In this document: in pieces, positions 16,059-56,400 of the stretch
Layout of the letters: every line of letters begins with the position of its first letter
How positions within the stretch are numbered: position 1 is the stretch's first letter
DNA from: an uncultured Clostridia bacterium
GTDB lineage: Bacteria; Bacillota; Clostridia; Lutisporales; Lutisporaceae
DNA length: 64,000 nucleotides
Direction: 5' to 3'
Assembly: GCA_937930535.1 (NCBI GenBank)
Contig: CALGKJ010000130.1
Span: 6,168 to 70,167 of the forward strand
Made by a program: the position numbers and the translations under genes
Notes under the pieces: model-generated
The model's input: the letters and a program-made list of their open reading frames with translations, nothing else
What the model was told of the DNA's origin: nothing
Databases searched by the model: none

Positions 16059-16374
16059 TTATTTGACCTCCTAAAAATTTACAGATTTTATAATAATAAT
16101 TTAAGTCTAAACCACAAATTTTATTATAATAGAATTGTTTCAAATTGTAATCATTAATATTTAGTATAAAACTTTATGTATGATGTTTATGAAATTAGAT
16201 GTGTGTATAATATTATTACATATATAGTATACAACACTAATAATTATGTGTAAAGAAATAACATATAAAAAATAATATTTGCAGAAAATATATTGTGCGA
16301 AATATGATTAATAAATTCATACAAATTATGTAAAGGCAGTATAATAATTTTTAATATAAATAGGAGATGTATAT

Positions 16375-17073
16375 ATGAACTTGATAGAGAAAACCTATGG
16401 AACAGCAGTTAAGACGGTGTTGTGGTTTGTACTTCCATTTAAGGAGATGTTTATAGAAACTTTATGTGAGGTACATGTTTTTATTAATAATCAGGCATTG
16501 GTTATATTGAAAAATGATGGTTATAAGGAGGCTTATGATTTGCTTGACAGCTACAAAGCAGCTATTAATAAAGGGGCTGTCTGGGCAGATCAGGATTTTA
16601 AGAGCAGAGATCATTTCTACAATCCTTTTACACATAAGGGGTTGTTTGGCTGCAAGACCTCAAAGGAATGGTTTAATAAATACTATAGATATGCTCTTGT
16701 TCATTGGGAGCAAGGTGATTACCAAACTGCAATGTTTTATCTTGGAGCAGCAGTACATCTGATTCAGGATGCAACAATACCGCAGCATGGTAACGTAAAC
16801 CTATTGAAAAACCACAGAAGCTATGAACAGTGGATTAAAAAGGTACATGACGATTTTGTACACTACGCCGTTGAAGATAAAGGACTGTACTATAATTGTC
16901 CCAATTACTATATTGACATGAACGCAAAGTGTGCTATAGAAACCTATAGGAGGTATTCCTTGATAAAAAATCCTAAGGATAAATATTTCAGAATAACAAA
17001 TATAACCTTTCCCATAGCTCAAAGAACTACAGCAGGGTGCTTTCTAAATTTCTATAACAAGGTTTCCAATTAA
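16375..17073 (+). CDS. Zinc-dependent phospholipase C family protein
   Basis: Zn-ligand style motifs WADQDF, DHFYNP, HLIQDATIPQHGN. About 230 aa, single-domain PLC-like fold. Confidence 0.65.
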   Translation: MNLIEKTYGTAVKTVLWFVLPFKEMFIETLCEVHVFINNQALVILKNDGYKEAYDLLDSYKAAINKGAVWADQDFKSRDHFYNPFTHKGLFGCKTSKEWFNKYYRYALVHWEQGDYQTAMFYLGAAVHLIQDATIPQHGNVNLLKNHRSYEQWIKKVHDDFVHYAVEDKGLYYNCPNYYIDMNAKCAIETYRRYSLIKNPKDKYFRITNITFPIAQRTTAGCFLNFYNKVSN

Positions 17074-17088
17074 TGATTATCTAAAAAA

Positions 17089-17130
17089 TAATATAAGTGT
17101 CGGTTTTTTGCCCGACACTTATATTATTTT
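17089..17130. terminator. Bidirectional terminator between the PLC-like and ferritin-like genes
   Basis: Stem ATATAAGTGTCGG / CCGACACTTATAT with a T-rich loop and AT-rich flanks. It overlaps the stop codon of the minus-strand gene. Confidence 0.7.
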
Positions 17131-17540
17131 AGCATAGAATATAAATAAACAAATCTGGTTGCGTGTTCCTGCTCATCGGTTATTATTTCAAACAGCATAT
17201 CTCTGTGTTTTTTGCTATCCAGCATCGCGCGGATTTGACGATATAGCTCTACAGCTTTCAATTCACCCTGAATACCTGTTTTTATTCCGTCAATCAACCT
17301 GCATTTTTCAACCTCGGGGGCTGGGACTTCGATAATCTCGCTGGTTAAGTCTTTGAATATTTCCAGAAACATTTTATAGTGTTTTCCTTCGTCAAGGTAG
17401 GCATATCTAATGTTTTCGATTATTTCCTTGTTGTCAGTCAGTTCCATAAGATTCTTATACTTTATAAAGTCATATCTTTCACCTTTCAGTGCGTCTTTTA
17501 TCATATCGAAAAGCCTGTTGATATATTTATTATGCTGCAT
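17124..17540 (-). CDS. Ferritin-like / rubrerythrin-fold domain protein
   Basis: Paired ExxH-type segments (LDEGKHYKMF and TDEQEHATRF). ATG 17540 (MQHNKY) follows GGGGGTGGAGA. The ORF-track GTG at 17552 lies inside that RBS. Confidence 0.6.
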   Translation of the reverse strand: MQHNKYINRLFDMIKDALKGERYDFIKYKNLMELTDNKEIIENIRYAYLDEGKHYKMFLEIFKDLTSEIIEVPAPEVEKCRLIDGIKTGIQGELKAVELYRQIRAMLDSKKHRDMLFEIITDEQEHATRFVYLYSMLK

Positions 17541-17562
17541 GGTACTCTCCACCCCCTACACA

Positions 17563-17582
17563 TAGATAACCAACTCTATAAC
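17563..17582 (-). repeat. M2-like repeat copy (minus-strand reading GTTATAGAGTTGGTTATCTA)
   Basis: 19/20 match to the M2 core. It sits just upstream of the RBS of the ferritin-like gene, the same placement as the copy upstream of pstC. Confidence 0.6.
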
Positions 17583-17613
17583 TGATATAACATTATATGT
17601 AGGTGTAATAATT

Positions 17614-19365
17614 TTATTGTTTGTCTTCATTATAAATACTATCTAGGGGTATAGTCATACTTTTATAATTGCCCTGCTCACTTTTCAAAAAAAACATTAA
17701 AGTTTTTTCTGGAGCTTTATCCTTATAGGCAATATTAATGAAGAACACTTCAAAGGAAACATATTTTAATATATTTTTTGCATCTATATTGATAAAGCTG
17801 TTAGCAAATTTTAGTATATCTAACGAGGTTTTAATAAAATAATGAACGACCTCTTTTATAATAGCGTGATTATAACGCTTTATAATACTCGGTATATTGT
17901 TATTGCCTGAATGCAATATCCAATCAAACTTGATAATTTCATTGAATTCTAAGCTGGAGCTATGCTTGCTTGTAATGAATTCATACAGTATTACACATAA
18001 ATCACTTAAGCTTTTTGGAGAATCATAATAATTTTTTAATACCCAATAATCTGAGAAGCTGTAGTAAAAGCTGAAGGCATCACTGTAATAACTATCAATT
18101 ATATAGTCTAGAGAGCTGCGAAATTTTCCTGAGTTATGATATATATCCAGCAAGTGTTCAATATTTTTAAGCTTAAGCAGCTCCTCATAAGACATCCATT
18201 TTGTGGATAATACTTCATATGGAGGATGCTCATTATATTCTATACTGTACTCAAAGGATTTTTTTCTTATGCCGGAGCCTTTTAAAAGCTTTAAAAATCC
18301 AAGCTGGAGCATGTCTGCTTTTATATTGTATACTGCATTAAAAGAGCTTTTAAAGCTATCGAAGCTTTCATAAGGCAGCCCTGCTATTAAATCTAAATGT
18401 ACGTGTGCATTATTAAATTCTATAATCTTAAGTACATTTTCTCTAACCTTATCAAAATTCATTTTCCTTTTTATTTCATACAGGGTATCGGTATTTGTTG
18501 ACTGTACTCCTATTTCAAATTGAAAAAGACCTTCTGGAGCAGCGGATAATACCTCTAAAAAGCTATTATCTATTAAATCTGCTGCAATCTCGAAGTGGAA
18601 GTTAGTATTGCCTTTCAAGTCTATAATATATTGTATTATTTCTATACTTCTTTTTTTATCACAGTTAAAGGTTCTATCTACCAGCTTTACCTGCTTTACA
18701 TTATTTTTTACAAAAAAAGCTATATCTGATTTAATACGCTCCAAAGAAAAAAATCTGATACCATGTATGGTTGAGGATAAGCAGTACTGGCAGTTAAAGG
18801 GGCAGCCCCTGCTTGTTTCATAATATATTATTTTGTTTTGAAGCTGTGATATATCAACATATGGGAAGGGTATTATATCCAGATTATCTATTTGCCTTCT
18901 TATTTTATTAAGATAGACTTTATTATTATGCTTGTAAGCTATACCATCAACACTTTGCAATTCAGATATCTCTTCATTTATATATTTTGCTAAATCAAGA
19001 AAGGTCAGCTCACCCTCTCCTGCAATTATAAAATCTACATCAGGATTACTGTTTAATAAATCAGTATAGTCATAGGATACTTCTGGTCCTCCAAGTATTA
19101 TAATACTTTTTGGCAGGATTTTTTTTATACTTCTAGCAAGCTTTAATACCAGCTCTATGTTCCATATATAGCAGGAGAAGGCAATAACATTGCAACCACT
19201 ATTATATATTTCCTTTAATATATTGTTAAAGCTGTCATTTATACTGAATTCCTTAATACTAACGCTGTCTATACTTGATTTACAATATTCCTTAATATAT
19301 CTTACAGCTAGATTTGAGTGTATGTACTTTGCGTTTATTGCAGTTAAAAGAAATTTATTATGCAT
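17614..19365 (-). CDS. B12-binding-domain radical SAM protein with DUF4080 C-terminal region
   Basis: N-terminal B12-like Rossmann segment, radical SAM cluster CPFNCQYC, long C-terminal extension. ATG 19365 (MHNKFLL) follows AGGGGGA. The ORF track extends to 19395. Confidence 0.8.
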   Translation of the reverse strand: MHNKFLLTAINAKYIHSNLAVRYIKEYCKSSIDSVSIKEFSINDSFNNILKEIYNSGCNVIAFSCYIWNIELVLKLARSIKKILPKSIIILGGPEVSYDYTDLLNSNPDVDFIIAGEGELTFLDLAKYINEEISELQSVDGIAYKHNNKVYLNKIRRQIDNLDIIPFPYVDISQLQNKIIYYETSRGCPFNCQYCLSSTIHGIRFFSLERIKSDIAFFVKNNVKQVKLVDRTFNCDKKRSIEIIQYIIDLKGNTNFHFEIAADLIDNSFLEVLSAAPEGLFQFEIGVQSTNTDTLYEIKRKMNFDKVRENVLKIIEFNNAHVHLDLIAGLPYESFDSFKSSFNAVYNIKADMLQLGFLKLLKGSGIRKKSFEYSIEYNEHPPYEVLSTKWMSYEELLKLKNIEHLLDIYHNSGKFRSSLDYIIDSYYSDAFSFYYSFSDYWVLKNYYDSPKSLSDLCVILYEFITSKHSSSLEFNEIIKFDWILHSGNNNIPSIIKRYNHAIIKEVVHYFIKTSLDILKFANSFINIDAKNILKYVSFEVFFINIAYKDKAPEKTLMFFLKSEQGNYKSMTIPLDSIYNEDKQ

Positions 19366-19544
19366 ATTTTCCCCCTGTAAAATTGTTATCTTCATTTATA
19401 TATTATACCAATATTTTGTCATGTTTATATTATAAAGTTCAAATGAAGTTAGTCTCTAAATAGTTTAATAGTATTATTATAGTATTTCTAAGCAATTATT
19501 TGGTACAATAAACTATATATTTCTATTATCGGAGGTAAAGGCGA

Positions 19545-21251
19545 ATGGATAAGAGACAACTAAGCAGCATATTTGAAGATATAGCTATGCTGTTGGAAAT
19601 TAAAGGTGAAAATCCTTTTAAGACAAAAGCCTATATCAACGCAGCCAGAACCTTGGAGCTTCTGGAGGGAGACTTAAGTGATTATATAAAAGAGGGCAGC
19701 TTGGAGGATATTAAAGGTATAGGAAAGGCTATATCAGAAAAAATATTAGAGTATGCCCAAACAGGACAAATAAGATATTATGATGAATTAAAGGCAGCAG
19801 TGCCGGCAGGCTTGTTTGATATGCTGAGGATTCCGGGAGTTGGTCCTAAAAAGGTTAAAGTAATTTATGAAAAACTTGGCATAAAGTCTATAGGTGAATT
19901 GGAATACGCATGTATAGAAAACAGGCTGCTTGAAATTGAGGGCTTTGGAAAGAAAACACAAGATAATATTTTAAAAGGTATTGAGCATATCAAGAAGTTT
20001 AAGGGTCAGCACCTTTATGGAGATGTATTTTATCAGGCTCAGCAAATGAAAAATGCCTTGCTTGAATCTGGCTTTATAATACAATGTGAGATAACCGGAA
20101 GCTTAAGAAGAAAAAAGGAAATCGTAAAGGATATAGATATGGTATCAAGCTCAGCAAATCCTTTAAAGCTGGTAAATTACTTTACTACGCTGCCTTTAGT
20201 TGAGGAAATCATTGCAAAGGGTGACACCAAAGCTTCTGTCATACTAAAGTGCGGTATCAATATGGATTTACGAATAGTTGCTGAACATGAATATCCCTAT
20301 GTACTTAATCATTTTACAGGCAGCAAGGAGCATAATACAGCAATAAGACACAGAGCAAAGGCTATGGGCATTAAGGTAAATGAATATGGACTGTTTAGGG
20401 GAGAAGAGCTTATTAAATGCAGCAATGAAGCCGATATATATAAAGTCTTGGGCTTGACATATATCCCACCTGAGCTTAGAGAAAACAGTGGAGAAATAGA
20501 AGCCGCAGAAAAGGATTTATTGCCCTTGCTTATTGAAGCAAAGGACATATTAGGAGCATTTCATATACATACACAATATAGCGACGGTGCTGACACCATT
20601 GAGGAAATGGTAATGGAAGCAAAGAAGCTGGGATTAAGCTATATAGGAATTGCAGATCACAGTAAATCTGCTTTTTATGCAAGAGGCTTAAACGTGGACG
20701 AAATTAAAAGGCAGCATGAGGAAATAGATGAAATAAACTCAAGACAGTCAGGCTTTAAGATTTATAAAGGAATAGAAGCTGATATACTGCCGGATGGATC
20801 TTTGGACTATGAGGATAGTGTTTTAGAGCTTTTTGATTTTGTAATTGCCTCAGTACATTCAAATTTTAAGATGGAAAGAGATAAAATGACCCAGCGACTA
20901 AAAAATGCACTAACAAATCCATATACAACTATGCTTGGTCATCCTACAGGGCGTATACTTCTTGCCAGAGAGGAATATGAAATTGATATATATGAAGTTA
21001 TTGATACTGCTGCTGCATATGGAAAGATAATTGAAATAAACTCAGACCCCCATAGACTGGACTTGGATTGGAGATATATCAAATATGCCAGAGATAAAGG
21101 TGTAAAGCTGTCAATCAACCCTGATGCACATGATATATACGGACTCAAAAACATAGAGTTCGGAGTTGGCATTGCTCGTAAAGGGTGGCTGACTAAAAAG
21201 GATGTTATAAATTCTCTGGATATTCAGCAAATTAATGAGCTTTTAATATGA
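19545..21251 (+). CDS. polX: Family X DNA polymerase with C-terminal PHP phosphoesterase domain (PolX)
   Basis: HhH motifs (IKGIGKAISEKI, IPGVGPKKV), Pol-beta nucleotidyltransferase core (GSLRRKKEIVKDIDM), PHP motifs (HIHTQYSDG, DHS, SVHS, GHPTGR). Confidence 0.9.
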   Translation: MDKRQLSSIFEDIAMLLEIKGENPFKTKAYINAARTLELLEGDLSDYIKEGSLEDIKGIGKAISEKILEYAQTGQIRYYDELKAAVPAGLFDMLRIPGVGPKKVKVIYEKLGIKSIGELEYACIENRLLEIEGFGKKTQDNILKGIEHIKKFKGQHLYGDVFYQAQQMKNALLESGFIIQCEITGSLRRKKEIVKDIDMVSSSANPLKLVNYFTTLPLVEEIIAKGDTKASVILKCGINMDLRIVAEHEYPYVLNHFTGSKEHNTAIRHRAKAMGIKVNEYGLFRGEELIKCSNEADIYKVLGLTYIPPELRENSGEIEAAEKDLLPLLIEAKDILGAFHIHTQYSDGADTIEEMVMEAKKLGLSYIGIADHSKSAFYARGLNVDEIKRQHEEIDEINSRQSGFKIYKGIEADILPDGSLDYEDSVLELFDFVIASVHSNFKMERDKMTQRLKNALTNPYTTMLGHPTGRILLAREEYEIDIYEVIDTAAAYGKIIEINSDPHRLDLDWRYIKYARDKGVKLSINPDAHDIYGLKNIEFGVGIARKGWLTKKDVINSLDIQQINELLI

Positions 21252-43218: not shown

Positions 43219-43902
43219 ATGCTGCCCAAAAGATATTCAAGAAATATTGCAACCATTTCTGAGGAAGAGAATCAGAGTATATGCAATAAAAAAGTCTGCG
43301 TAGTGGGCTGTGGAGGTCTTGGAGGATATGTTATAGAAATGCTTGCAAGGCTTGGAATTGGGCACATTATTGCAGTAGACGGAGATGTTTTTGAGGAATC
43401 CAACCTGAATAGACAAATATTATCGGATGTTGAATCCTTGGGAATTAAAAAGGCTTTGGCTGCAAGGGAACGTATTAAGAAGGTAAATCCATTGGTGCAG
43501 GTGGAGGCCATAACAAAAAGGCTTACTGCTGAAAATGCAAAACAAATAATTGATAACGCTGATGTAGTAGTGGATGCACTGGACAGTATAGAAACACGAC
43601 TTCTATTGGAAGCCTTTTGTCAGGAGCTTGAAATTCCTCTAGTGCATGGTGCTATAGCAGGCTGGTATGGTCAGGTTTGTACTGTTTTGCCTGGGGAACG
43701 GACTCTAAGTCGTTTTTACAAAGATAAAAGCTTAAGCGGAGTAGAAAAAAAGCTGGGTAATCCATCCTTTACGCCAGCATTGATTGCATCTATGCAGGTC
43801 AGTGAAGTCTTAAAGCTTCTTATAAAAAGGGGAGACTTATTAAATAAAAAGATACTTCTTATAGATCTGCTGAGACATGAATATGACATTATAGACTTTT
43901 AA
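43219..43902 (+). CDS. ThiF/MoeB/HesA-family E1-like adenylyltransferase
   Basis: Nucleotide-binding motif VVGCGGLGG, then DGDVFEESNLNRQ. 227 aa, paired with the MoaD-like gene. Confidence 0.85.
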   Translation: MLPKRYSRNIATISEEENQSICNKKVCVVGCGGLGGYVIEMLARLGIGHIIAVDGDVFEESNLNRQILSDVESLGIKKALAARERIKKVNPLVQVEAITKRLTAENAKQIIDNADVVVDALDSIETRLLLEAFCQELEIPLVHGAIAGWYGQVCTVLPGERTLSRFYKDKSLSGVEKKLGNPSFTPALIASMQVSEVLKLLIKRGDLLNKKILLIDLLRHEYDIIDF

Positions 43903-43907
43903 AAGAT

Positions 43908-43960
43908 AAAAACAATAGCCGCTAACGAAAAGTTAGTTCATTATGGCTATTGTTTTTTTA
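43908..43960 (+). terminator. Rho-independent terminator after the ThiF-like gene; last core-gene signal before the accessory region
   Basis: 13-bp stem AAAAACAATAGCC / GGCTATTGTTTTT with an internal mini-hairpin CTAAC/GTTAG, followed by a T-run. Confidence 0.8.
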
Positions 43961-44010
43961 TTACGATTAAAACCTAATCTGCAAATCGGCTAGGCTCAGG
44001 TACTGCGATC

Positions 44011-44032
44011 ACTTCAAAATTGAATTTTTCCA
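44011..44032 (+). repeat. Partial M1 repeat copy (ACTTCAAAATTGAATTTTTCCA)
   Basis: 22/22 identical to 48101-48122. It is followed by CTCTATAAC, which resembles the reverse complement of the M2 core. Confidence 0.75.
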
Positions 44033-44983
44033 CTCTATAACCCATTTATTAACATTATCATACTATAGGGTTTTTGACTTAAAACTTAAATTATACCAAG
44101 CTAAAAACCTAGAAGGGGAGCAATAACTAACCCATGAATAAGTTAAGTTTTATGGTTGATTCCCTATAATAGTGAATAATTATAAAAGACATGTTGCGAC
44201 CCATGGGCCTTGCGACAGTTGTATAAAATACTTAGGTATAAGTGAGTTTTTAATAAAATGTAAGTAGAATAAAAATGACAGTTTGCATAGCATACAGCAG
44301 TGCATTGAGTATGTTGTATACTTGAGCAGGATGTGACGTGCAAATCAACTAATTAATTATAGAAACTAATTACAATAATGCATTGTAGATTTCGACAAAA
44401 TGCACAAAAATGTAGCAAGTTAATATTGACATCTGTTTTTTGGTATAATATACTATCATAAATGTTAATGTTTTCCGAGTGTTATTTTTTATTGTAAATA
44501 CAAGTAATAAAGAAAATAAAATGTTATGACTAATTACTAAAATATGATATAATAAGACTCAGGTTATTTTCACTTAAAACTATAATTTGATTTCGACAAA
44601 ACCGATTTAATAAAGTATGTATAACAAAAAAAATGTTCTGTATAGTTAGTGAAGTTTGTGGATATATAGTGTAAGACAAATTAACAGTTTGTGGTTGTAA
44701 ACAAACTATAAGTTTATTTTGACATATTTGCTGCCATATCTTGATGTTGACAATATGTGAAGTATAAATATGAAAAAGTGTAGTTAAGCAGCTGATTATT
44801 TGCAGGCTCAAAAAAATTGACCATAGAAATGGAGGTGAACTGTATCGCATAATCATATGCAAATAAATCAAACTTAAGATAATGAATCAGGTGAAATTAT
44901 GCTAACCTATAAAACAGTCAGCATCAAGTAGATATAATTACAATGAATTTTAAATCAATGTAGTATTAGTAAGGGAGAGTTAT

Positions 44984-45721
44984 ATGAAGAATTACAAAAA
45001 ATTAATTATTATCATACCTGTAGTTATAATAGTATCAATAGTTGCGTTTTTAGCTTTTTTTATAGTCCAGGAAAATATTGAATATCGAAAGATGACGCCA
45101 TTAAACACACAAGAAATAATACCAGATGTATATGCAGTTAATAATGGAAACGTTAATCTTTATTTGATTAAGAACAATGAGGGATATATAGCTATTGATG
45201 CTGGTTCAAGTCCTAATGTAACTAAAAGGGAATTGGATAAGCTGGGAATCAACCCTGATGATGTAACGATGGTATTTTTAACCCATACAGATATGGATCA
45301 TGTAGCTTCTGTAAAGCTTTTTAAAAATGCCAAGATTTATATTTCAGAAGAAGAAAAGCAAATGATAACTGGTGAGACCAAACGTAAACTAATATTTGGT
45401 AATAAACTGGATTGTGAATACAGTACATTAAAGGATGGGGAAAAAATAAATTCTTCCAATACGGAAATACAATGCATATTAACACCGGGACATACTATAG
45501 GATCCGCATGCTACATAGTAAACGGAGAGTTGCTTTTTTCAGGAGATACTATAAGCTTAAAGGTTGGAACAGTAGACACATTTAATAAACCGCTGAACAT
45601 GGATACTGAAGCTCAAAAGGATAGTATCAATAAGCTTAAGCAGTTGACAAACATAAAATATATTTTCACAGGTCATTACGGTTATTCCGATAATTTCGAA
45701 AAGGCTTTTAAAGAAAATTAG
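44984..45721 (+). CDS. Membrane-anchored metallo-beta-lactamase-fold hydrolase
   Basis: N-terminal TM helix (LIIIIPVVIIVSIVAFLAFFIV). MBL motif region FLTHTDMDHV reads H-x-D-x-D-H instead of H-x-H-x-D-H. Later His residues are in TPGHT and TGHYG. Confidence 0.75.
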   Translation: MKNYKKLIIIIPVVIIVSIVAFLAFFIVQENIEYRKMTPLNTQEIIPDVYAVNNGNVNLYLIKNNEGYIAIDAGSSPNVTKRELDKLGINPDDVTMVFLTHTDMDHVASVKLFKNAKIYISEEEKQMITGETKRKLIFGNKLDCEYSTLKDGEKINSSNTEIQCILTPGHTIGSACYIVNGELLFSGDTISLKVGTVDTFNKPLNMDTEAQKDSINKLKQLTNIKYIFTGHYGYSDNFEKAFKEN

Positions 45722-45754
45722 CATTTTAATAATTCCATTATTAGTAATTGAACA

Positions 45755-45801
45755 TTAAGATTACATTACAAATAATGGAATTATTTGTAATGTAATCTTA
45801 A
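45755..45801. repeat. Perfect 22-bp-arm palindrome (TTAAGATTACATTACAAATAAT-GGA-ATTATTTGTAATGTAATCTTAA)
   Basis: I checked the arms base by base. It lies between the MBL and acyltransferase genes, and no U-tract follows. Confidence 0.85.
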
Positions 45802-45960
45802 TCTATATCACAAATGCAATTATTTATTTCGTTTGTACAATAAGTGTTTTAAGTATAAGTATTATTATTCAGTGATGGGTTTGCTTTGAAGAAGCGCATA
45901 GCAGTTCAAAGTTTATATGTTTTTCTTAAATAACAATAATCTAAATCAGAGGTGAAGAAT

Positions 45961-47226
45961 ATGAAATTAGCAATGTTATTTCCAGGCCAAGGTTCTCAAT
46001 ATGTAGGAATGGGAAAAGCCTTATGTGATCAATTTGATGTTGCACAAAGGACTTTTCAGGAAGCAAATGAAGCTTTGAATTTTGATATTCAAAAGCTGTG
46101 CTTTGAAGGAAGCATGGATGAACTAACAAAAACAGAAAACAGTCAGCCGGCTATTTTAACAGCCAGTGTTGCTGCTTTCAGAGTATATATGCAGGAAATA
46201 GGTGTTGCTCCGCATATTTTAGCAGGACATAGCTTAGGAGAGTATTCGGCTTTAGTATGTACAAACAGTATTGAATTTGCTGATGCCGTTAAAGTTGTTA
46301 GGCAAAGAGGTCTATTTATGCAGACTGCTGTTCCGGTAGGAATGGGGGCTATGGCAGCAATCAGTGGTTTGGATATAGAAACTGTCGAAAAGGAATGTAA
46401 CAAATACTCAGCCAGCGGCGATAATATCGCAAGTGTGTCTAATTACAATGCTAAAGACCAGATTGTTATCTCGGGTCATAAGCCAGCAGTTGAAGCACTA
46501 AGTGAGACCTTCGGCAAAATGGGTGCAACAGTTATTCCTTTAAAAGTAAGTGCACCATTCCACTGCTCATTAATGAAACCCGCAGCAGACAATTTGAGGC
46601 TGGAGCTGGAAAAATACACTTATAAAGATTTTACATATCCGGTAATTTCAAATGTTGAGGCTGTTCCTTATACAAGTAAGGATACAATAGTTGATATTCT
46701 AACCAAACAGGTGGTAGATGCTGTAAGATGGCATGAATCAATGAAATATCTGGCTGGCTTGGATATAGATTTTGCAATCGAAATGGGACCCAAAAATGTA
46801 TTGAAGAATCTGATGAAGAAAAATCTTAAGGAACTGACTGCTTATACATTTGACAGAGAAGATGATAAGAAAATGATAAGAAATAGACTTGCTGTCAAAG
46901 AAAACAGCAGTAACGGCGACGATAAGTTTATGGCTGTAATAACAAGATGCATGGCTGTTGCGGTATGTACTAAAAACAGTAACTGGAATAATGATGAATA
47001 TAATAGCGGCGTAATTGAACCATATAGATACATAAAACAAATGCAGATGAGCATGGAAAAGGATGGTATTAAGCCAACTAAAGAACAGGCTGAGGAAGCC
47101 ATTGATATGCTTAAATCTGTGTTTAAAACAAAAGGAACACCTAACGAGGAGCGAATTAAGAGATTTAATCAAATATTAGATGAAACTAACACAATAGAAT
47201 TTTTTGAAAGCATCATAACAGCATAA
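45961..47226 (+). CDS. Discrete malonyl-CoA:ACP transacylase-like acyltransferase with a ~115-aa C-terminal extension
   Basis: GQGSQYVGMG, active-site GHSLGEYSA, SAPFH. The FabD-like core ends around residue 300, followed by a helical extension. ATG 45961 follows GAGGTG. Confidence 0.88.
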   Translation: MKLAMLFPGQGSQYVGMGKALCDQFDVAQRTFQEANEALNFDIQKLCFEGSMDELTKTENSQPAILTASVAAFRVYMQEIGVAPHILAGHSLGEYSALVCTNSIEFADAVKVVRQRGLFMQTAVPVGMGAMAAISGLDIETVEKECNKYSASGDNIASVSNYNAKDQIVISGHKPAVEALSETFGKMGATVIPLKVSAPFHCSLMKPAADNLRLELEKYTYKDFTYPVISNVEAVPYTSKDTIVDILTKQVVDAVRWHESMKYLAGLDIDFAIEMGPKNVLKNLMKKNLKELTAYTFDREDDKKMIRNRLAVKENSSNGDDKFMAVITRCMAVAVCTKNSNWNNDEYNSGVIEPYRYIKQMQMSMEKDGIKPTKEQAEEAIDMLKSVFKTKGTPNEERIKRFNQILDETNTIEFFESIITA

Positions 47227-47248
47227 TATTTGCGATGGAGAAGTGATT

Positions 47249-47944
47249 ATGAAAAAAATAAAACTATTTTGCTTGCCTTATGCAGGTGGAACAGCAGCAA
47301 TCTATAATAAATGGAAAAAATCCGTTAACAAGCATATAGAGGTATGTCCCATTGAATTGCCAGGCAGAGGGAAGCGGTTTATCGAGCCTCTATTTCATAA
47401 TATGTCAGACGCTGTTGATGATATTTTTCATAGTGTAAGAAACTATTTAGATGTTCAGCCATATGCCTTTTTTGGTTATAGTATGGGAAGCTGGCTGGCT
47501 TATGAGGTTATACGAAAAGCACTAAAGGCAGGCTACAGACCTCCAGTACATGCATTCTTTGCTGCAAAGGATGCACCTTCTGTAGTTCGTGATAAGGTAA
47601 AAATGCATTTGCTTGAACATGATGAGTTTGTTAATAGAATTTTAAAGCTCGGAGGCACTCCAGAAGGGATATTTGAAAATGACGAGCTGATGGAGATATT
47701 TGTTAATATACTAAGAACCGACTATGAGGTTGTGGAAACCTATAAGCATTGTGCCGCTGATAATAAAATAAACTGCAATATATCAGTTTTATATGGTGCA
47801 AAGGACAGCTATCCAGAGGAGGATGTAAAAGCTTGGACTGATATTACTAGCGGAAATTGCAGCTTTACCAGTTTTGATGACGGACATTTCTTTATTAATA
47901 ATTATCAGGATAAAATAATAAATATTGTAAACACAATGTTATAG
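47249..47944 (+). CDS. Type II (editing) thioesterase
   Basis: LFCLPYAGG N-terminus, nucleophile motif GYSMGS, C-terminal His in DDGHFF. About 230 aa. Confidence 0.88.
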   Translation: MKKIKLFCLPYAGGTAAIYNKWKKSVNKHIEVCPIELPGRGKRFIEPLFHNMSDAVDDIFHSVRNYLDVQPYAFFGYSMGSWLAYEVIRKALKAGYRPPVHAFFAAKDAPSVVRDKVKMHLLEHDEFVNRILKLGGTPEGIFENDELMEIFVNILRTDYEVVETYKHCAADNKINCNISVLYGAKDSYPEEDVKAWTDITSGNCSFTSFDDGHFFINNYQDKIINIVNTML

Positions 47945-48231: not shown

Positions 48232-51200
48232 ATGATCAAGCACAAGAACCTTATCGAAGCATTAGAGGGAGCACGAAAAGAGACAGAAAAAGGAATACGG
48301 TTTATTAATGGCGATAAGGACAGTACATTTGTTACTTATGAAGAATTATATCAAAATTCACTCATCATTTTAGGCTATTTGCAATCAATTGGAATAGAGC
48401 ATGGTTCTGAATTAGTATTTCAGATACAGGATAATGATCATACAATCTATATGTTTTGGGCTTGTCTTCTTGGCGGCTTTATACCAGTGCCTGTAGCAGT
48501 AGGAAATAATGATGAACACAGACTTAAACTGTTTAAAATATGGAGCTATCTAAATAATCCATATTTAGTTATAGATGCAAAGTCGCTCTCAGCATTAACT
48601 GTATACGGTAAAGAAAACAATTTAGAAAGTCAAATGGAAACAATGAAAAACAAGACTATCTATATTGAGAGTGTTTTCAACAAAAACTCAATCATTGTAA
48701 CATCAAATCAAGGCGTTATTCATATGCCGGAACCGGGCAGTATTGCCTTCATTCAATTTTCTTCTGGCTCAACAGGAGACCCAAAGGGCGTTATATTAAC
48801 TCATGAAAATCTGATAGCAAACATAATGGGGATAGTTATAGCTACAGAAACAACTAGCGACGATTCATTCTTATCTTGGATGCCTCTTACACATGACATG
48901 GGAATGATAGGTTTTCACTTAGTACCCTTAGCATTGCATATAAATCAATATCTGATTCCCACAAAACTATTTGTAAGACACCCAACCTTATGGTTAAAAG
49001 CGGTTAATGAATTTAGAGCGACATTAATAAGCTCACCAAACTTTGGCTATAGCTACCTGTTATCTCATTTTTCACAAGAAATTGCTAAAGACTGGGATTT
49101 ATCATGTGTCAGACTACTTGTTAATGGTGCAGAGCCTATTTCATATGAGCTATGTAACCAGTTCTTAGATGAAATGCTCAAATATGGTCTAAAAAGAACA
49201 AGTATGTTTACAGTATATGGTATGGCAGAAGCCTGTGTTGGAGTTGCTATGCCCCACTTAGGTCATGAATTTAAGACTGTAATGGTAGACCGAAACCATC
49301 TAGGCATTGGCGAACGTATAATAGAAATGAGTGCAGAAGATGCTAATGTTGTCGGTTTTGTCGAGGAAGGATATGCAATTGATTATTGCAGCCTTAGAAT
49401 ATGTGATGAAAAGGATAATGTTGTAGAAGACAGGGTTGTGGGTCAAATACAGATAAAGGGAGAAAACGTTACAAGGGGATATTATAATAATCCGGCGGCT
49501 ACGGAGAAAATCATTACAAAGGACGGATGGCTCAGAACTGGAGATCTTGCCTTTTTGCGTGATGGAAGTCTGGTGGTAACAGGAAGGCTTAAGGATATAA
49601 TCTTTGTTAATGGTCAGAACTTTTACCCCCATGATATTGAACGAGTATTGGAAGAGATTGAAGGCTTGGAAACAGGCAGAGTAGTAGCAGCAGGAGCTTT
49701 CAATAATGAAACTAAAGAAGAGGAAATTATAATATTTGTTTTATACAAAAAGAAGCTGGAAGATTTCTTGCCTTTAGCTTCACGTATTAAGTTACTTCTA
49801 AAAGAAAAAATTGGTCTATTTATCAGACATGTTGTTCCAATTAAGAAAGTACCAAAAACAACCAGTGGAAAGGTGCAAAGATACAAGCTGGCTGATATGT
49901 ATCAAGGAGGTAGCTTTTCAGAAGAGCTAAGCAAAATTGAGGAACTGAAAGCAGAAATTGCAGCTACGGAAAATAATGCTTTAACATATAGCGATACAGA
50001 GGAATTGGTTATTAAGCTGTGTAGAGATACCTTTAAAAATAATAATATTGATATTAATGGAAGCTTTGTTGAGCTGGGTATAAACTCACTGAAGCTTACT
50101 TCATTAGCATCAGCTATACACGAGCATCTGAATGTAGAAATTCCCTTAAAGGACATGTTTCAGATCTCAACCGTAAGGGAATTGGCAGAGTACATTTCAG
50201 ATTATCATGAGCAGAGTATATATTCATCTATTGAAGCGGTTGCAGGAAACCCTGAACATCCACAAGGCTGCTTTGAAGCATCCTCGGCACAGAAGAGGCT
50301 TTATGTAATAGATCAGATAGATACTGATACAATAGGGCCTAATACCGGCTATAATATGCCGGAAGCACTGCTTATTGAAGGTGAGCTGGATATAGCTGCA
50401 ATGGAGCAGGCATTTCGTACACTAATAAAAAGACATGAATCCCTGAGAACATCCTTTACAACTATAGACGGTGAACCTATTCAGAGAATTCATGATAATG
50501 TAGATTTCAAAATAAGCTGCTTTAAGACTACAGAGGATAAAGTAAATGATATCATGAGAGACTTTATCCGACCATTTACAATGGATGTTCCACCGCTTTT
50601 CAGAGTTGCTTTAATAGAAATAGCAGCTAATAAATATGTACTTGTACTGGACATGCATCACATCATATCTGATGGCTGGTCCGTAATGGTGCTGATAAAG
50701 GAGTTATTGCTGCTGCTTGAGGGGGAAAGTCTTCCTGATTTAGAGATTCAATACAAGGATTTTGCAGTATGGCAAAACAAGCTTTTTAAGTCGGATGAAA
50801 TGCAAAAGAAGGAAGAATACTGGCTGAAAAGGTTTGAAGTAAAGGATGGCGGTAAGCTGCCAGTACTAAACATTCCTACTGATTTTCCAAGACCTTCAAA
50901 TAAGTCCTATGAAGGCGACCGATTGGTAATAACAACCGGCAGAGAGCTGATTGATGCACTTAATAAAGTTGCAGAAATTACATCAAGTACTTTGCACATG
51001 GTAATGCTTGCAGCCTATACTATACTTCTTTCAAAATATTCGGGTCAGGAGGATATTATAGTAGGCTCGCCCATAGCTGGAAGACCTCACAAGGACTTAC
51101 AAGACATTATAGGAATGTTTATAAATATGTTAGCCAATAGAAATACTCCAAGACGTGATATGACCTTTAAAGATTTCCTAGCTGAGGTAAAAGAGAACTG

Positions 51201-51621
51201 CTTGAATACATATCAAAATCAGGAATATCAGTTTGATGAGCTTGTAAGCAAGCTTAAGGTAAAGCGAGACATGAGCAGAAATCCGTTGTTTGACTATGTT
51301 TTTGCGGTTCAAAATCTTGATATACCAGATATGCAAAATAGCAAAATATCAGTAAGACCATATGATTTTGCCTACAATATTTCAAGATTCGATATGTTCC
51401 TTTCTGTAATGGAAATGGGTGACAGTGTTAGATTCTTGCTTGAGTATTCAACTGCACTTTTCAAGAAAACAACAGCAGAGAGAATTATTAAGCACTACAT
51501 GGAAATCCTGGAACAAATCAAGGATAACGTAAATATTAGACTTGAAGATATAGTACTTAGTCATAACCTATCAACAGCTAAAAGCAATATTTTAAAATCA
51601 GATGATGATTTTGATTTTTAA
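48232..51621 (+). CDS. Lipoinitiation module: fatty acyl-AMP ligase (FAAL) - carrier protein - condensation domain
   Basis: FAAL-type motifs FSSGSTGDPKGV, WMPLTHDMGMIG, GYYNNPAAT, TGDLAF, TTSGKVQR. Carrier motif LGINSL. C-domain motifs SSAQKRLYV and HHIISDGWS. The C-terminal tail is NILKSDDDFDF. Confidence 0.9.
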   Translation: MIKHKNLIEALEGARKETEKGIRFINGDKDSTFVTYEELYQNSLIILGYLQSIGIEHGSELVFQIQDNDHTIYMFWACLLGGFIPVPVAVGNNDEHRLKLFKIWSYLNNPYLVIDAKSLSALTVYGKENNLESQMETMKNKTIYIESVFNKNSIIVTSNQGVIHMPEPGSIAFIQFSSGSTGDPKGVILTHENLIANIMGIVIATETTSDDSFLSWMPLTHDMGMIGFHLVPLALHINQYLIPTKLFVRHPTLWLKAVNEFRATLISSPNFGYSYLLSHFSQEIAKDWDLSCVRLLVNGAEPISYELCNQFLDEMLKYGLKRTSMFTVYGMAEACVGVAMPHLGHEFKTVMVDRNHLGIGERIIEMSAEDANVVGFVEEGYAIDYCSLRICDEKDNVVEDRVVGQIQIKGENVTRGYYNNPAATEKIITKDGWLRTGDLAFLRDGSLVVTGRLKDIIFVNGQNFYPHDIERVLEEIEGLETGRVVAAGAFNNETKEEEIIIFVLYKKKLEDFLPLASRIKLLLKEKIGLFIRHVVPIKKVPKTTSGKVQRYKLADMYQGGSFSEELSKIEELKAEIAATENNALTYSDTEELVIKLCRDTFKNNNIDINGSFVELGINSLKLTSLASAIHEHLNVEIPLKDMFQISTVRELAEYISDYHEQSIYSSIEAVAGNPEHPQGCFEASSAQKRLYVIDQIDTDTIGPNTGYNMPEALLIEGELDIAAMEQAFRTLIKRHESLRTSFTTIDGEPIQRIHDNVDFKISCFKTTEDKVNDIMRDFIRPFTMDVPPLFRVALIEIAANKYVLVLDMHHIISDGWSVMVLIKELLLLLEGESLPDLEIQYKDFAVWQNKLFKSDEMQKKEEYWLKRFEVKDGGKLPVLNIPTDFPRPSNKSYEGDRLVITTGRELIDALNKVAEITSSTLHMVMLAAYTILLSKYSGQEDIIVGSPIAGRPHKDLQDIIGMFINMLANRNTPRRDMTFKDFLAEVKENCLNTYQNQEYQFDELVSKLKVKRDMSRNPLFDYVFAVQNLDIPDMQNSKISVRPYDFAYNISRFDMFLSVMEMGDSVRFLLEYSTALFKKTTAERIIKHYMEILEQIKDNVNIRLEDIVLSHNLSTAKSNILKSDDDFDF

Positions 51622-51683
51622 GCTTTGCAGTCAAAGGATATGAGATTATGACACCTCAAATATTCTAATTTATGGAGGTAATT

Positions 51684-53402
51684 ATGGAAATTAAAAATGT
51701 TTCACAAAAAAAGGATGAAAAAGCTCTAAAGGTTGTTCTGGGGATGATGCCCTACTGGACTCCTTTAAATCCACCCCAAGGAATAGGTATGCTAAAGGCA
51801 TATTTGCAGAAGTTTGGGTATAAGGTAAAGATTCTTGACCTTAATGTTCATGAAACCTTTAAGAAGGTTTACGTAGACTATTTTAAAAAGCTGGAAGAGT
51901 TTGTGCCTCCAGAGAAAAGAGGTAATTTCTATAATATCGGACATGATGTACTGCATAACCATATGATGGCAGCCTTCAAGTACACAGATGAAAATAAGTA
52001 CATAGAGCTGGTAAAAATATTAATATATCATACATATTATGTAAACATCAACAATGATCAAGCAAAAGAATTAAATGCGTTAATGAGCTTTTTCTACAAG
52101 GAATTAGAAGCATATTATACTAATCTGGTTGAAACAGAGAAGCCTGATGTTGTAGGATTCAGTATATTTAAAGGTAATATACCTGCTTCAATATTTGCTG
52201 CAAGAGTTGTAAAAAAACTGAATTCACAAATTAAGGTAGTTATGGGTGGAGGAGCTTTTGCTGATTCACATGCTGTAGGTTCACCAAATTACGATACACT
52301 TCTTAAGGAAACTGAAGACTGTGTAGATTTAATAATGAGAGATGGTCAAGGGGAGCAATCCTTATTAAAATTCTTGAGAGGCGAGATATCTGATAGGAGA
52401 GTTGTTTCCCTCAGTGACTTAGGGTTAACTCCAATACCTTTTAACCAGTTAGATATAGCAGATTTATCAGATATTAATACAGCAAGCTATCCATATATAA
52501 TAGCAACAGGTTCTTCAAGCTGTCCTAATGAATGCAGCTTCTGTAACTCATCAAGATATTGGGGCAAGTATAAAACAAAGGATATAAAACAGACAGTAAG
52601 CGAAATGATAAAGATGTATAAGAAATATGGAAACCAGTTATTCTTTATGTCTGATGCGCTGTTAAATCCAATAATCAGCGAGCTTTCTGCTGAATTTATA
52701 AATTCAGACTATACATTGTATTATGACTGCTATTTTAGAGTAGACGAGCCATCTGGAAACCTGGACAATACTATCCAGTGGAGACGTGGTGGTATGTATA
52801 GAACCAGAATAGGTGTAGAAAGCGGTTCTCAAAAGATACTTGATTTAATGCACAAGGAAATAAAGGTAGAGCAAACCAAGGAAACACTATATGCTTTGGC
52901 TACTGCGGGAATAAAAACCACAACGTATATAGTTATCGGACATCCAGACGAGACAGAGGAAGATTTCCAAATGACCCTTGATCTAGTTGAGGAGATGAAG
53001 GATTATATCTGGCAGGCTGAACCAAATCCTTTCTACTATCATTATGCAGGTCAGTTTGATTCAGATCAATGGGCAGATAAGAGAGAACTGCTTTATCCGG
53101 CAGAGGCTAGAGATATGCTGGTATTTGATACATGGACATTAAAATGCGAGCCTATGAGAGAAGAAAGATATAACAGATTACATCGTTTTATGGCTCACTG
53201 TGCTAAGCTTGGCATACCAAATCCATATAATGCTACTCAGCTGCACAATGCGGATGAAAGATGGAAGAAGCTTCATAAGAATGCAGTACCATCAATATGG
53301 GAATTCGAAAGATGGGGCAAAATGGTGCATGAAGCTAAGCAAATCGTAAAATTAGCTGGTGCAAAGAATATTTTAAGTAATGATGATGACTTCGGTTTTT
53401 AA
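51684..53402 (+). CDS. Stand-alone B12-binding-domain radical SAM enzyme (class B-like)
   Basis: N-terminal cobalamin-binding-like Rossmann segment. The CPNECSFC cluster (CxxxCxxC) is at 52521-52544. GGAGGT precedes ATG 51684. The C-terminal tail is NILSNDDDFGF. Confidence 0.85.
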   Translation: MEIKNVSQKKDEKALKVVLGMMPYWTPLNPPQGIGMLKAYLQKFGYKVKILDLNVHETFKKVYVDYFKKLEEFVPPEKRGNFYNIGHDVLHNHMMAAFKYTDENKYIELVKILIYHTYYVNINNDQAKELNALMSFFYKELEAYYTNLVETEKPDVVGFSIFKGNIPASIFAARVVKKLNSQIKVVMGGGAFADSHAVGSPNYDTLLKETEDCVDLIMRDGQGEQSLLKFLRGEISDRRVVSLSDLGLTPIPFNQLDIADLSDINTASYPYIIATGSSSCPNECSFCNSSRYWGKYKTKDIKQTVSEMIKMYKKYGNQLFFMSDALLNPIISELSAEFINSDYTLYYDCYFRVDEPSGNLDNTIQWRRGGMYRTRIGVESGSQKILDLMHKEIKVEQTKETLYALATAGIKTTTYIVIGHPDETEEDFQMTLDLVEEMKDYIWQAEPNPFYYHYAGQFDSDQWADKRELLYPAEARDMLVFDTWTLKCEPMREERYNRLHRFMAHCAKLGIPNPYNATQLHNADERWKKLHKNAVPSIWEFERWGKMVHEAKQIVKLAGAKNILSNDDDFGF

Positions 53403-53464: not shown

Positions 53465-56400
53465 ATGAATAAATCTGGCATAGCAGCAATAGCTGCGAGT
53501 CAACATGTAAAAGAAGGCGAATATTGGTTAAATAAACTATCAGGTGAGCTTGTAAAAAGCTTCTTCCCATATGATCACAATGTTACTGATACAAATAAAT
53601 ACAAAACAGTAACAGCCAAAGCCAGCTTTGAGCTTTCAGGAGAAATATATTCAAAGCTGTCAAAGCTAAGCAATGGTGCAGACGCAAGACTATTTATGAT
53701 TTTAGTAACCGGCATCAGCTTACTGCTGGACAGATATACAGGAAACAGTGACGTAGTTATTGGCGCACCAATATTTAAGCAGGAAGAAGAAGCGGAATTC
53801 GTAAATACAGTGCTTGCCTTAAGAAATGAAATTAAGAGAGATGGTTCCTTTAAGGATTTGCTGCTTCAAGTAAAGGATACAATTTTTGAAGCCTCCGAAA
53901 ATCAAAACTATCCTATGGAAACACTACTGTACCAGTTGGGTATGGAACAGGAAGAAAACAGCTTCCCATTATTTGAGGTAGTAGTATTATTAGAAAATGT
54001 ACATAACAAAAGCTATATAAGCAATATTATGACAAGCATAGTAATGTCCTTTAATAATACAAAAGACGTTATTAAGGGTGAAATAGAATACAATACGTCC
54101 TTATATGAAGCTGAAACCATCGAAAGAATAATAACACATTTTAAGAATCTGCTTTTATGCGGAGTAAGCAATGTTAATGCCAAGCTTTCTGAGCTTACTA
54201 TGCTTCCAGAAGAAGAAAAGCAGCTTATACTAAATAGCTTTAATAACAGTGCAGTACCTTATCCAAAGGAAAAAACCATATCCGGGCTATTTGAAGAGCA
54301 GGTTAAGCTGACACCGGAATGCATGGCTGTACAATTTGAAGGTGAAGCACTTACATATGCTGAGCTTAATAAGAAAGCAAACAGCCTTGCAAGAATATTG
54401 AGAGAGCATGGTGTAGGAACCTCAGAAGGCAACAATATTGTTGCAATTATGGTTGACAGATCCCTTGAAATGGTAGTTGGCATGATGGCGATACTTAAGG
54501 CTGGCGGAGCTTATCTTCCAGTTGATCCAGAGTATCCTGCTGAAAGAAAGCAGTTTATGCTGAAGGATAGTGATGTAAAGGTTCTGCTAATAAAGGGTGC
54601 AGTTAATGAAGAAATAGAGTTTGAAGGCACTATAATAGACTTAGAAAAAGAAAAAAATTACCTAGGAAATTCTGAAAACCTAGAAACAATTTCTTCAGAT
54701 TCATTGGCATATATCATATATACATCAGGATCAACAGGGCAGCCAAAGGGTGTACTTGTAAAGCACACTACTATTGTTAATACACTGACATGGAGAAAGG
54801 ACTACTATCAATTTACTGATAAGGATGCTGTACTGCAAATTCCTTCCTTCTCCTTTGACAGTTCAGTTGAAGATATATTTACACCACTTATAAGCGGTTC
54901 AAAGCTGGTACTTGTAAATAACCAGAACAGATTTAACGTTGCATATCTGCAAGAGGTTGTTACTGACTGCAAGGTAACACACTTCCTGATTACTCCTGGT
55001 TTATACAAGGTATTTATGGATGAGTATCCAGAAAGCTTAAAGTATCTGAGAATCATAACTGTAGCTGGAGATAAGTTTAACGAAGATTTGGTTAAAGAGC
55101 ACTTTGAGAAGCTTAATAACGTTAGATTTATTAATGAGTATGGGCCGACAGAAAACAGCGTTTGCTCAACGGTTTACGAAATTACACCAGAAAATATGAA
55201 GGTACTTATTGGTAAACCAATAAATAATGTAAAATGCTATATCGTTGATAAATACGGCTGCTTATGCCCAGTAGGGATACCCGGCGAGCTATGCGTATCG
55301 GGGACAGGCTTGGCAGTAGGATACCTAAACAGACCAGAGCTGACAAGTGAAAAGTTTATTAATAACCCATATGCAGAGGGCGAGAGGTTATATAAAACTG
55401 GTGACCTTGCAAGATGGCTGCCAGATGGAAATATAGAATTTTTAGGCAGAATAGATCATCAAGTAAAAATCAGAGGCTTTAGAATAGAGCTTGGTGAAAT
55501 CGAAAACCAATTGTTAACTCATGAACAGGTAAAAGAAACCCTAGTAATAGCTAAAGAAAATTGTGACGGCACAAAATATCTTGTTCAATACTTTACAGCC
55601 AATGAAAAGCTGACTGTACCTGAGCTTAGATGGTGTCTGGCAGACGCTCTTCCAGAGTACATGATTCCAGCTCATTTTGTACAGTTAGACAAAATGCCAT
55701 TGACTCCAAATGGAAAGATTGACAGACGAGCTCTTCCAGAACCAGAAGAAAATCTGGACTCATCAGCTATATATGAGGAGCCAACCAACGAAACAGAAGA
55801 AGAGCTTGTAACAGTATGGAAGGAAATACTTGACCTGGAAAAGGTAGGTATAAACGATAATTTCTTTGAAGTAGGCGGACACTCTCTTAGAGCAACTATA
55901 CTGGTTTCACAAATAAGAAAGAGATTCCATGTTGATGTGCCATTAAGAGAAATATTCAGAAAGCCAACAATAAAACAGCTGGCAAAGTTCATAGATCGTG
56001 GAGAAAAGAATATCTATATATCCATTCAGCCAGTTGAGAAGAAGGAATACTATCCAGCATCTCCAGCACAAAAGAGAATGTATCTGGTTAACAAGGTGGA
56101 TGGTATAGGGGTTACATATAACGTACCATTGGCTATGCATATTGACAAACATCTGGATAAGGAAAGAACTCAGAATGCTTTTGCTGAAATAGTAAAAAGA
56201 CATGAGGCCTTTAGAACCTCCTTTGACTTTGTTGAGGATGAATTAGTACAAAGAGTACATGATGAAGTAAATTTTGAAATAGATTACATGGAAGCTGAAG
56301 AAAATCAGGTTAACAAAATAGCTGAAAGCTTTGTACGTACCTTTGATTTCAAAGCAGCACCACTTCTCAGAGTTATGCTAATAAACCTGAAGGAAGGCAA

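Follow-up and report, generated by a model that had tools for sequence, protein, structure and literature searches.

A shared acidic-aromatic C-terminal tail on assembly-line subunits and cobalamin-type radical SAM enzymes, a candidate docking motif for an orphan condensation-domain lobe

Results

Genes and tails at the locus

We analyzed a 64,000-nucleotide stretch of DNA, referred to here as the window, from an uncultured Clostridia bacterium of the Lutisporaceae (assembly GCA_937930535.1, contig CALGKJ010000130.1, positions 6,168 to 70,167 of the forward strand). Three consecutive genes of the window encode an upstream assembly-line subunit composed of a fatty acyl-AMP ligase (FAAL), an acyl carrier protein (ACP), and a condensation (C) domain (P5); a free-standing cobalamin-type radical S-adenosylmethionine (rSAM) enzyme (P6); and a nonribosomal peptide synthetase (NRPS) that starts with a partial C domain, here termed halfC, followed by adenylation (A) and thiolation (T) domains (P7) (Table 1). 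P5 and P6 end in near-identical acidic-aromatic tails. These tails are proposed to be docking motifs, with halfC as their likely acceptor.

Table 1. Coordinates of P5, P6, P7, and their relevant parts in the window
Feature	Position	Strand	Basis and remarks
P5, FAAL-ACP-C subunit, 1129 aa, upstream assembly-line protein	48232..51621	+	Pfam AMP-binding 29-418, PP-binding 599-655, Condensation 681-1111
Complete C domain of P5	50272..51564	+	Pfam Condensation profile positions 5-448 of 456, E = 5e-114
C-terminal acidic-aromatic tail of P5, STAKSNILKSDDDFDF, proposed docking motif	51571..51618	+	Read from sequence; C-terminus also given as SNILKSDDDFDF
P6, free-standing cobalamin-type radical SAM enzyme, 572 aa	51684..53402; ORF open from 51672	+	Pfam B12-binding and Radical_SAM
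CxxxCxxC radical SAM cluster motif of P6 (CPNECSFC)	52521..52544	+	Read from sequence
C-terminal acidic-aromatic tail of P6, AKNILSNDDDFGF, proposed docking motif	53361..53399	+	Read from sequence
P7, NRPS: N-terminal partial C, then A-T-C-A-T	53459/53465-59188	+	ATG 53465
halfC, orphan C-terminal lobe of a C domain at the P7 N-terminus, proposed acceptor of both tails	53465..54208	+	Partial C-domain alignment
A and T domains of the first P7 module	54314..55993	+	Pfam AMP-binding, PP-binding 782-845; specificity code DSELTAEVC

The near-identity of the two tails, noted in a preliminary description of this DNA, was confirmed by reading the sequence; the C-terminus of P6 reads GAKNILSNDDDFGF, also given as KNILSNDDDFGF. 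As that description stated, the two proteins are otherwise unrelated, with no similarity between them outside the tails, and no other protein in the window carries the tail: a six-frame regular-expression scan of the 64 kb matched only the P5 and P6 copies. The likeness does extend to the DNA, where 28/36 tail-coding positions are identical. The same codon is used at six of the eight shared tail residues, compared to 4.1 expected from the codon usage of the cluster itself. The DNA resemblance is therefore accounted for by that of the peptides and needs no recent duplication. In an AlphaFold2 (AF2) model of P5 residues 665 to 1129 (mean predicted local distance difference test [pLDDT] score, 86.5; predicted template modeling [pTM] score, 0.83), which is otherwise confident, the last 16 residues have a pLDDT below 50. 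The same holds for residues 560 to 572 of P6, as well as for its residues 1 to 11. Both tails are therefore predicted to be disordered.

The C domain of P5 has both lobes and the HHxxxDG catalytic motif (MHHIISDGWS). The P7 N-terminus, by comparison, matches the C-lobe of C domains from residue ~17 onward, and halfC aligns only to positions ~180-434 of the P5 C domain and to positions ~154/187-456 of the Pfam Condensation profile. The earlier reading of the NRPS at 53465 as beginning with a half-C domain thus stands, with only the C-terminal lobe present.

The true start of P6 is most likely the ATG at 51684: a GGAGG stands 5 nt upstream of it, and the resulting length fits an identical 572-aa database protein (P0001). 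P6 is a class B (cobalamin-dependent) rSAM enzyme, as indicated by its N-terminal B12-binding domain (PF02310, E = 3.9e-10), its rSAM core (PF04055, E = 8.6e-15) with a CxxxCxxC motif, and its fold. The motif cysteines C280, C284, and C287 are invariant in a 28-sequence alignment. The AlphaFold model of P6, built from 28 sequences (mean pLDDT, 90.3; pTM, 0.89), gave OxsB, MgmA, TsrM, AprD4, TokK, and CysS as top Foldseek matches, with E values of 1e-14 to 1e-9, template modeling (TM) scores of 0.45-0.57, and 11-16% identity. No curated NCBIfam model matched P6 at its cutoff, the best being TIGR03975 (101 bits versus a cutoff of 282), and a PDB sequence search returned weak matches only.

Conservation of the tail in the P6 family

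An ending of the form [DE]x[DG]DFxF/L is present on nearly all of the best 120 homologues of P6, which are 46-75% identical to it and span Aminicenantes, Kapabacteria, Bacillota, and metagenomic bacteria. A HMMER search of 1.84 billion cluster representatives retrieved 1005 relatives at E <= 1e-30. Among the matches listed, every representative that reaches the profile end keeps the tail ending, including more distant representatives at the 50%-cluster level, whereas the ending is missing from a sister group whose sequences stop ~20-30 residues short of it. None of the 1005 representatives appears to have been characterized. Judged by these alignments, the tail is an ancestral, family-wide trait of this rSAM family across many phyla. 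The idea that P6 carries a local copy of the P5 tail was consequently dropped, since the tail is ancestral to the whole family and occurs on other enzyme families too. A recent local duplication or gene conversion was likewise rejected on this ground and on the codon count given above.

Gene order and tail census in homologous loci

The preliminary description had proposed to check tail conservation in homologous clusters. This was done for about 100 loci, comprising that of a 59%-identical homologue (L001), one in an Aminicenantes genome (L002), 13 from in-family, species-representative genomes (L003-L015), and 80 loci from metagenomes, retrieved by means of the C-terminal region specific to the rSAM family (L083-L162). 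In most loci with enough flanking sequence, a subunit ending in T-C-tail is followed by a tailed rSAM gene and then by a subunit starting with halfC-A-T. Open reading frames (ORFs) in the loci were classified by a script using reference domains taken from the window. The tail was found on 77/95 rSAM ORFs and on 70/93 ORFs ending in a C domain, versus 14/65 other NRPS or polyketide synthase (PKS) ORFs and 26/2966 ORFs without a reference-domain match, the latter being mostly minus-strand noise. Several of the tail-less rSAM and C-ended ORFs have visible tail variants or frameshifts. In addition, among the 120 best C-domain homologues, 44 end in a tail of the P5 kind. The tail is thus kept on both partners across phyla, and because it recurs on both partner types in about 100 independent loci, the match between P5 and P6 lies far beyond chance. 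The idea put forward in the preliminary description, which was to fail should orthologous clusters lack the tail, survives this check.

In three loci (L100 5644-9120, L101 8642-12156, and L129 294-3684), a tandem pair of rSAM genes, both from one family and both encoding the tail, stands between one C-tail subunit and one halfC subunit, which suggests two successive radical modifications at one module.

Association of the tail with halfC

The N-terminal motif of halfC, A..Q..KE.EYWL.KLSGEL..FP.D, is conserved across phyla. In this dataset, halfC occurs only at subunit N-termini or right after a fused rSAM, and no cis C-halfC-A arrangement was present in the examined loci. Of the halfC-starting ORFs with an upstream neighbor, 72/78 follow a tail-bearing gene (66 strict and six loose tails); the remaining six have upstream variants such as VEDFNENF, or broken genes. 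No genuine tail was found upstream of the ORFs that start with a full C domain (0/16 with an upstream neighbor). At L110, a subunit with a tail-less C end is followed by a subunit that starts directly with an A domain, and halfC is absent from this junction. Divergent rSAMs of L008, L011, L013, L014, and L157 have neither a tail nor a halfC neighbor.

The two elements also occur together where no enzyme gene intervenes, as C-tail and halfC meet directly in L005, L015, L096, L110, L127, and L164. Because this junction exists without any rSAM, the tail-halfC pair is best viewed as a subunit docking device first and a recruitment tag second. L015 additionally has a tailed rSAM before a halfC subunit, and the upstream protein there ends without a C domain or tail.

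Co-variation of the tails at one junction

Across the compared junctions, the rSAM tail is more similar to the C-protein tail of its own junction than to the tails of other junctions. The 8-residue tail cores score 18.5 for their own junction and 14.5 +/- 0.69 when shuffled, and local alignment of the last 12 residues gives a mean BLOSUM score of 22.9 versus 18.1 +/- 0.58 for shuffled pairs. Overall, the co-variation amounts to z = 5.6-8, statistics that are inflated by kinship among the loci; after thinning to 35 junctions with rSAMs less than 60% identical, z equals 5.6, and 0/20000 shuffles reach the observed value. Examples of matched pairs are DDGDWF/DDRDDWGL, DDDVDFNF/EDEVDFNF, DFNL/DFKL, and DFMI/DFEI. 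In the four loci that have two such junctions, tails paired within their own junction score 23.75 and tails paired across junctions 17.0 (one-sided p = 0.023), a hint of a tail code specific to each junction.

Fusions and other tail-bearing enzymes

In P0250 (2077 aa) and P0251 (1377 aa), a B12-rSAM is joined directly to halfC-A-T, with no acidic-aromatic motif at the joint. At the P0250 locus (L165), the upstream C-A-T-C protein keeps its tail, ending in EDVLDFDF at the stop codon, 8 bp before the fused gene. From these sequences, the rSAM tail appears to be dispensable exactly when the rSAM is covalently tied to halfC. A clade in which the rSAM is fused to a C-like domain keeps the tail at the new C-terminus (P0279, P0280, and ~20 others). 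The proteins P0279-P0312, of ~1100-1230 aa, consist of an rSAM and one or more C-like domains, and most end in [DE]xFxF; P0298 has a TauD-type dioxygenase domain in place of the tail.

The tail is not confined to the P6 family. Peptidase_U32-like proteins of ~400 aa are encoded directly upstream of halfC subunits (L093 585-1784, L104 503-1711, and L140 362-1579) and end in DYGDFDF, DTGDFDF, and AIDFELD. U32 members include oxygen-independent hydroxylases (PMC11574389). The cysteine pattern of the tailed proteins differs from the canonical CX6CX15CX3C. A second, distantly related B12-rSAM family of ~560 aa is found between C-tail and halfC genes (L005 4352-6043, L137 7677-9356, and L161 7885-9567), with the tails VDFNLD, ADFDFI, and EADFDF. 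Furthermore, some tailed rSAMs have an N-terminal PP-loop-ATPase-like extension of ~350 aa, with weak Pfam matches to tRNA_Me_trans, PAPS_reduct, and ATP_bind_3 (L004 3517-6240, L140 7598-10378, and P0247).

As a separate observation, an rSAM core (CPYQCAYC) with a B12-like domain is located inside the A domain of several halfC-A-T modules (L004 6221-11848, aa ~383-965; L006 11701-14238; L140 10412-15604; and L140 1628-7552). Its point of insertion is either between regions A2 and A3 or just after the start of the A domain. We know of no interrupted A domain that hosts a radical SAM domain.

A comparable junction is present in Paenibacillus algorifonticola (L164 1-5172), where a subunit ending in SRKGSLEDIEFAF (LEDIEFAF) is followed by a 1093-aa halfC-A-T-thioesterase (TE) protein and two ABC transporters. 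Several other C-terminated fragments from Paenibacillus end in EFLF or EFAF. In its layout, L164 resembles pmxA-pmxB-pmxC-pmxD of the polymyxin cluster. A search for named PmxB relatives gave nine matches, none of which was informative.

Surroundings of the three genes

The next gene after P7 on the plus strand of the window encodes a PKS subunit. The listed PKS ORF, starting with a TTG at 59094, shares 95 nt with the end of P7 (59094-59188); its true start is probably further downstream, near MSNDNTQNF. Upstream of P5, positions 43219-47944 encode a ThiF-family E1-like protein, a metallo-beta-lactamase-fold protein, a free-standing acyltransferase, and a type II thioesterase, which are probably accessory genes of the P5-P7 cluster. 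The ORFs in the first ~42 kb of the window look like housekeeping genes, as judged from their end sequences alone.

Discussion

A docking model for the tail and halfC

The preliminary description proposed the tail as a docking motif for a trans-acting rSAM enzyme. Its conservation, the co-variation by junction, the association with halfC, the predicted disorder, and its loss upon fusion all argue for this role. Likewise, the proposed half-C acceptor gains support from the 72/78 association and from the loss of the tail in halfC fusions. We consider it likely that the acidic-aromatic tail docks on the orphan C-lobe halfC. The tail would be a disordered C-terminal docking motif of ~12-16 residues, with an acidic run and an aromatic-x-hydrophobic end (consensus A.N....[DE][DG]DFxF), and pairing of the tail with halfC would connect the parts of an assembly line divided at the C/A boundary. 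The P5 side would contribute a complete catalytic C domain with a tail and the P7 side halfC-A-T, while trans-acting, oxygen-independent tailoring enzymes with the same tail would be brought to the same module.

In this scheme, the A domain would load the T domain of P7 module 1, after which the aminoacyl-S-T intermediate would be modified by the docked rSAM, with C-methylation at an unactivated carbon as the most plausible reaction. The docked C domain of P5 would then condense the acyl chain onto the modified aminoacyl-S-T; the order of these steps is itself conjectural. The T domain of P7 module 1 is likely the carrier of the substrate reached by the P5 C domain and, presumably, by the rSAM. 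Occupancy of a binding site on halfC would alternate between the partners. The cobalamin-type architecture of P6 makes C-methylation the most plausible chemistry, although class B rSAMs include non-methylases such as OxsB and AprD4.

Several observations weigh against this model. Diverse codes (Asn-like, Val-like, Pro-like, DIWELTADD, and DSELTAEVC) are found in the A domains that come after rSAM junctions, so the substrate and reaction of the rSAM cannot be read from sequence. Their diversity implies either that the rSAM targets a backbone-proximal position common to many residues or that the family has diversified. The mean net charge of halfC is -5.9, and that of the C-lobes of full C domains is -7.8; as halfC as a whole is not basic, it offers no bulk charge complementarity to an acidic tail. 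Each halfC has two or three tails to serve, which demands alternating occupancy or more than one site. At some junctions (L012, L112, L114, and L145), a W-type rSAM tail is paired with an F-type C tail. Finally, a mutual-information scan of tail type (F/W) against halfC and A-domain columns, which was underpowered and confounded by phylogeny, gave no halfC-specific signal.

Two further ideas on the chemistry were set aside. A single substrate amino acid for the rSAM was rejected, given that the A-domain codes are diverse and are also found in rSAM-free modules. Replacement of epimerization (E) domains by the rSAM is less likely, as related clusters keep E-type domains with ends resembling communication-mediating (COM) domains.

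Alternative explanations

The tail may dock elsewhere than on halfC, either on the downstream A or T domain or, in a daisy chain, with the rSAM tail on the C-lobe of the upstream full C domain and only the C-protein tail on halfC. We hold this to be unlikely, though it has points in its favor. As halfC always precedes A-T, synteny does not by itself tell whether halfC, A, or T is the acceptor. There is homology between halfC and the C-lobe of full C domains, several tails face one halfC, and the mutual-information scan did not favor halfC columns. However, no tail is found upstream of the A-starting subunit that follows a C-terminated one at L110, nor upstream of subunits starting with a full C domain, and it is specifically upon fusion to the halfC N-terminus that the rSAM loses its tail. 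In L015, moreover, the rSAM is tailed before halfC even though the upstream protein offers neither a C domain nor a tail.

A role unrelated to docking seems more doubtful still; the tail might then be a stability or proteolysis signal, a localization tag, or the site by which a chaperone, maturation factor, or reductase common to these proteins takes hold of them. The predicted disorder of the tails would suit such a role, and short acidic-aromatic C-termini serve as general partner-binding handles elsewhere, for example at the C-terminal tip of the single-stranded DNA-binding protein (SSB). However, a general tag would show no junction-by-junction co-variation inside a single cluster, no link to a halfC downstream, and no loss upon halfC fusion; in addition, no candidate gene for a common partner recurs in the loci. 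Least credible of all is that the likeness is historical debris without function, namely, a remnant of a C-A linker on P5 that reached the rSAM gene by local duplication or gene conversion. The P5 tail does sit where a C-A linker would begin (compare EQKQILNSFNNNKVEY after the internal C domain of P7), and the two DNA segments are 28/36 identical. Nevertheless, the reading of the P5 tail as a vestigial linker was rejected, as the same tail sits on rSAM and U32-like proteins, families that never had a C-A linker yet keep it across phyla. The codon identity (6 versus 4.1) is not above the prediction from codon bias, and family-wide conservation of the tail, down to 46% overall identity, contradicts debris.

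Comparison with known docking and recruitment systems

According to the preliminary description, recruitment of an rSAM enzyme by a copied C-terminal docking tail is not known to have been described. Our search of the full-text literature agreed: neither the tail nor a docking function of halfC turned up, and no account was found of rSAM or U32 enzymes that dock to NRPS modules. A 2021 review of docking lists COM, PAX, and short linear motif (SLiM)-beta-hairpin docking domain (betaHD) pairs for NRPSs and notes that SLiMs also occur on non-carrier proteins such as oxidases (PMC9113145). The tail-halfC pair works like the SLiM systems of tubulysin (TubC), rhabdopeptide (Kj12), and enacyloxin (Bamb_5915/5917), in which a disordered C-terminal peptide of <15 residues docks on a structured N-terminal element and one acceptor can serve several partners. 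Yet it is not a member of the SLiM-betaHD class. The acceptor is an orphan C-lobe of ~250 aa rather than a 60-aa alpha-beta-beta-alpha-alpha betaHD, and P7 has no Pfam match to TubC_N or another docking domain. The donor tails follow a C domain (P5) or a free-standing enzyme (P6) instead of a carrier protein, the junction is C/A and not T/C or T/Cy, and the motif is acidic-aromatic (DFxF).

With COM domains, which act at E/C junctions, the pair has in common that short terminal elements set the subunit order. In COM docking, however, the donor helix comes after an E or T domain and binds the N-terminus of a complete C domain, whereas the tail described here comes after a C domain and has as its counterpart a half C domain that lacks the N-lobe. 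COM-like junctions were also observed among the compared loci: the L001 ORF 11773-15765 ends in TPSDLTDEELSIEELDNILEFVDSI after an E-type domain, and the next ORF (15848-20608) starts with MGKANQVQKIYSLSPMQEGV. Similar junctions occur in L004, L009, and L109. Two docking systems thus coexist in one assembly line.

Recruitment of tailoring enzymes by a C-fold occurs in two other settings, with the X-domain recruiting cytochrome P450s in glycopeptide NRPSs (reportedly Haslinger et al. 2015) and interface (I) domains recruiting beta-hydroxylases (reportedly Reitz et al. 2019). As predicted here for halfC, a degenerate, non-catalytic C-fold serves as the platform that brings trans-acting enzymes to a carrier-bound intermediate. 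Unlike X and I domains, which are full-length and lie inside a subunit, halfC is half a domain at a subunit N-terminus. Their partners bind by folded surfaces and are oxygen-dependent, whereas the enzymes described here are anaerobic (rSAM, U32-like) and carry a portable linear tag that also joins assembly-line subunits.

Among characterized enzymes, CysS (cystobactamid) and TokK share the three-domain cobalamin (Cbl)-rSAM architecture (TM ~0.5 to the P6 model), although at 11-14% identity to P6. CysS works on a pantetheinylated NRPS building block, so Cbl-rSAMs can act on pantetheine-tethered NRPS building blocks; the CysS paper makes no mention of a docking tail or of interleaving with NRPS subunits (PMC12846815). 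DscE, an rSAM C-methyltransferase of the discodermin NRPS cluster, was described in 2025 as part of "an unusual enzyme combination" and methylated free discodermins in vitro, as a late modification resembling those of RiPPs, peptides made by the ribosome and modified after translation (PMC12858407). Both DscE and P6 are cobalamin-type rSAMs encoded in NRPS clusters. In contrast to DscE, members of the P6 family have their genes between those of the subunits, end in the subunit docking tail, and in some cases form part of a module by fusion, which points to on-line action.

Significance

The known NRPS docking systems (COM, PAX, and SLiM-betaHD) act at T/C or E/C junctions, and a natural portable C/A pair would be new. 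Engineers already cut NRPSs at the C/A boundary for "exchange units," and the tail-halfC pair could serve as an orthogonal connector for NRPS engineering. If the model is true, it also provides a simple sequence rule by which such modules can be found in metagenomes, namely, DFxF at the end of one gene product and EYWL.KLSG at the start of the subunit that comes next.

On balance, we favor the broader view that the tail and halfC represent a hitherto unrecognized docking code found across many phyla, in which a C-terminal motif and an orphan C-lobe join subunits non-covalently at C/A in junction-specific variants and, in anaerobes, recruit oxygen-independent enzymes (two B12-rSAM families, U32-like proteins, and PP-loop-rSAM fusions) to carrier-bound intermediates while the chain is being assembled. 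The same code may also join subunits of lipopeptide synthetases with a polymyxin-like layout in Paenibacillus, which is aerobic. The junction type may thereby extend to polymyxin-type synthetases, a possible clinical link. For the anaerobes themselves, the model, if true, would show how strict anaerobes carry out assembly-line C-H functionalization without oxygen-dependent P450 or non-haem-iron enzymes.

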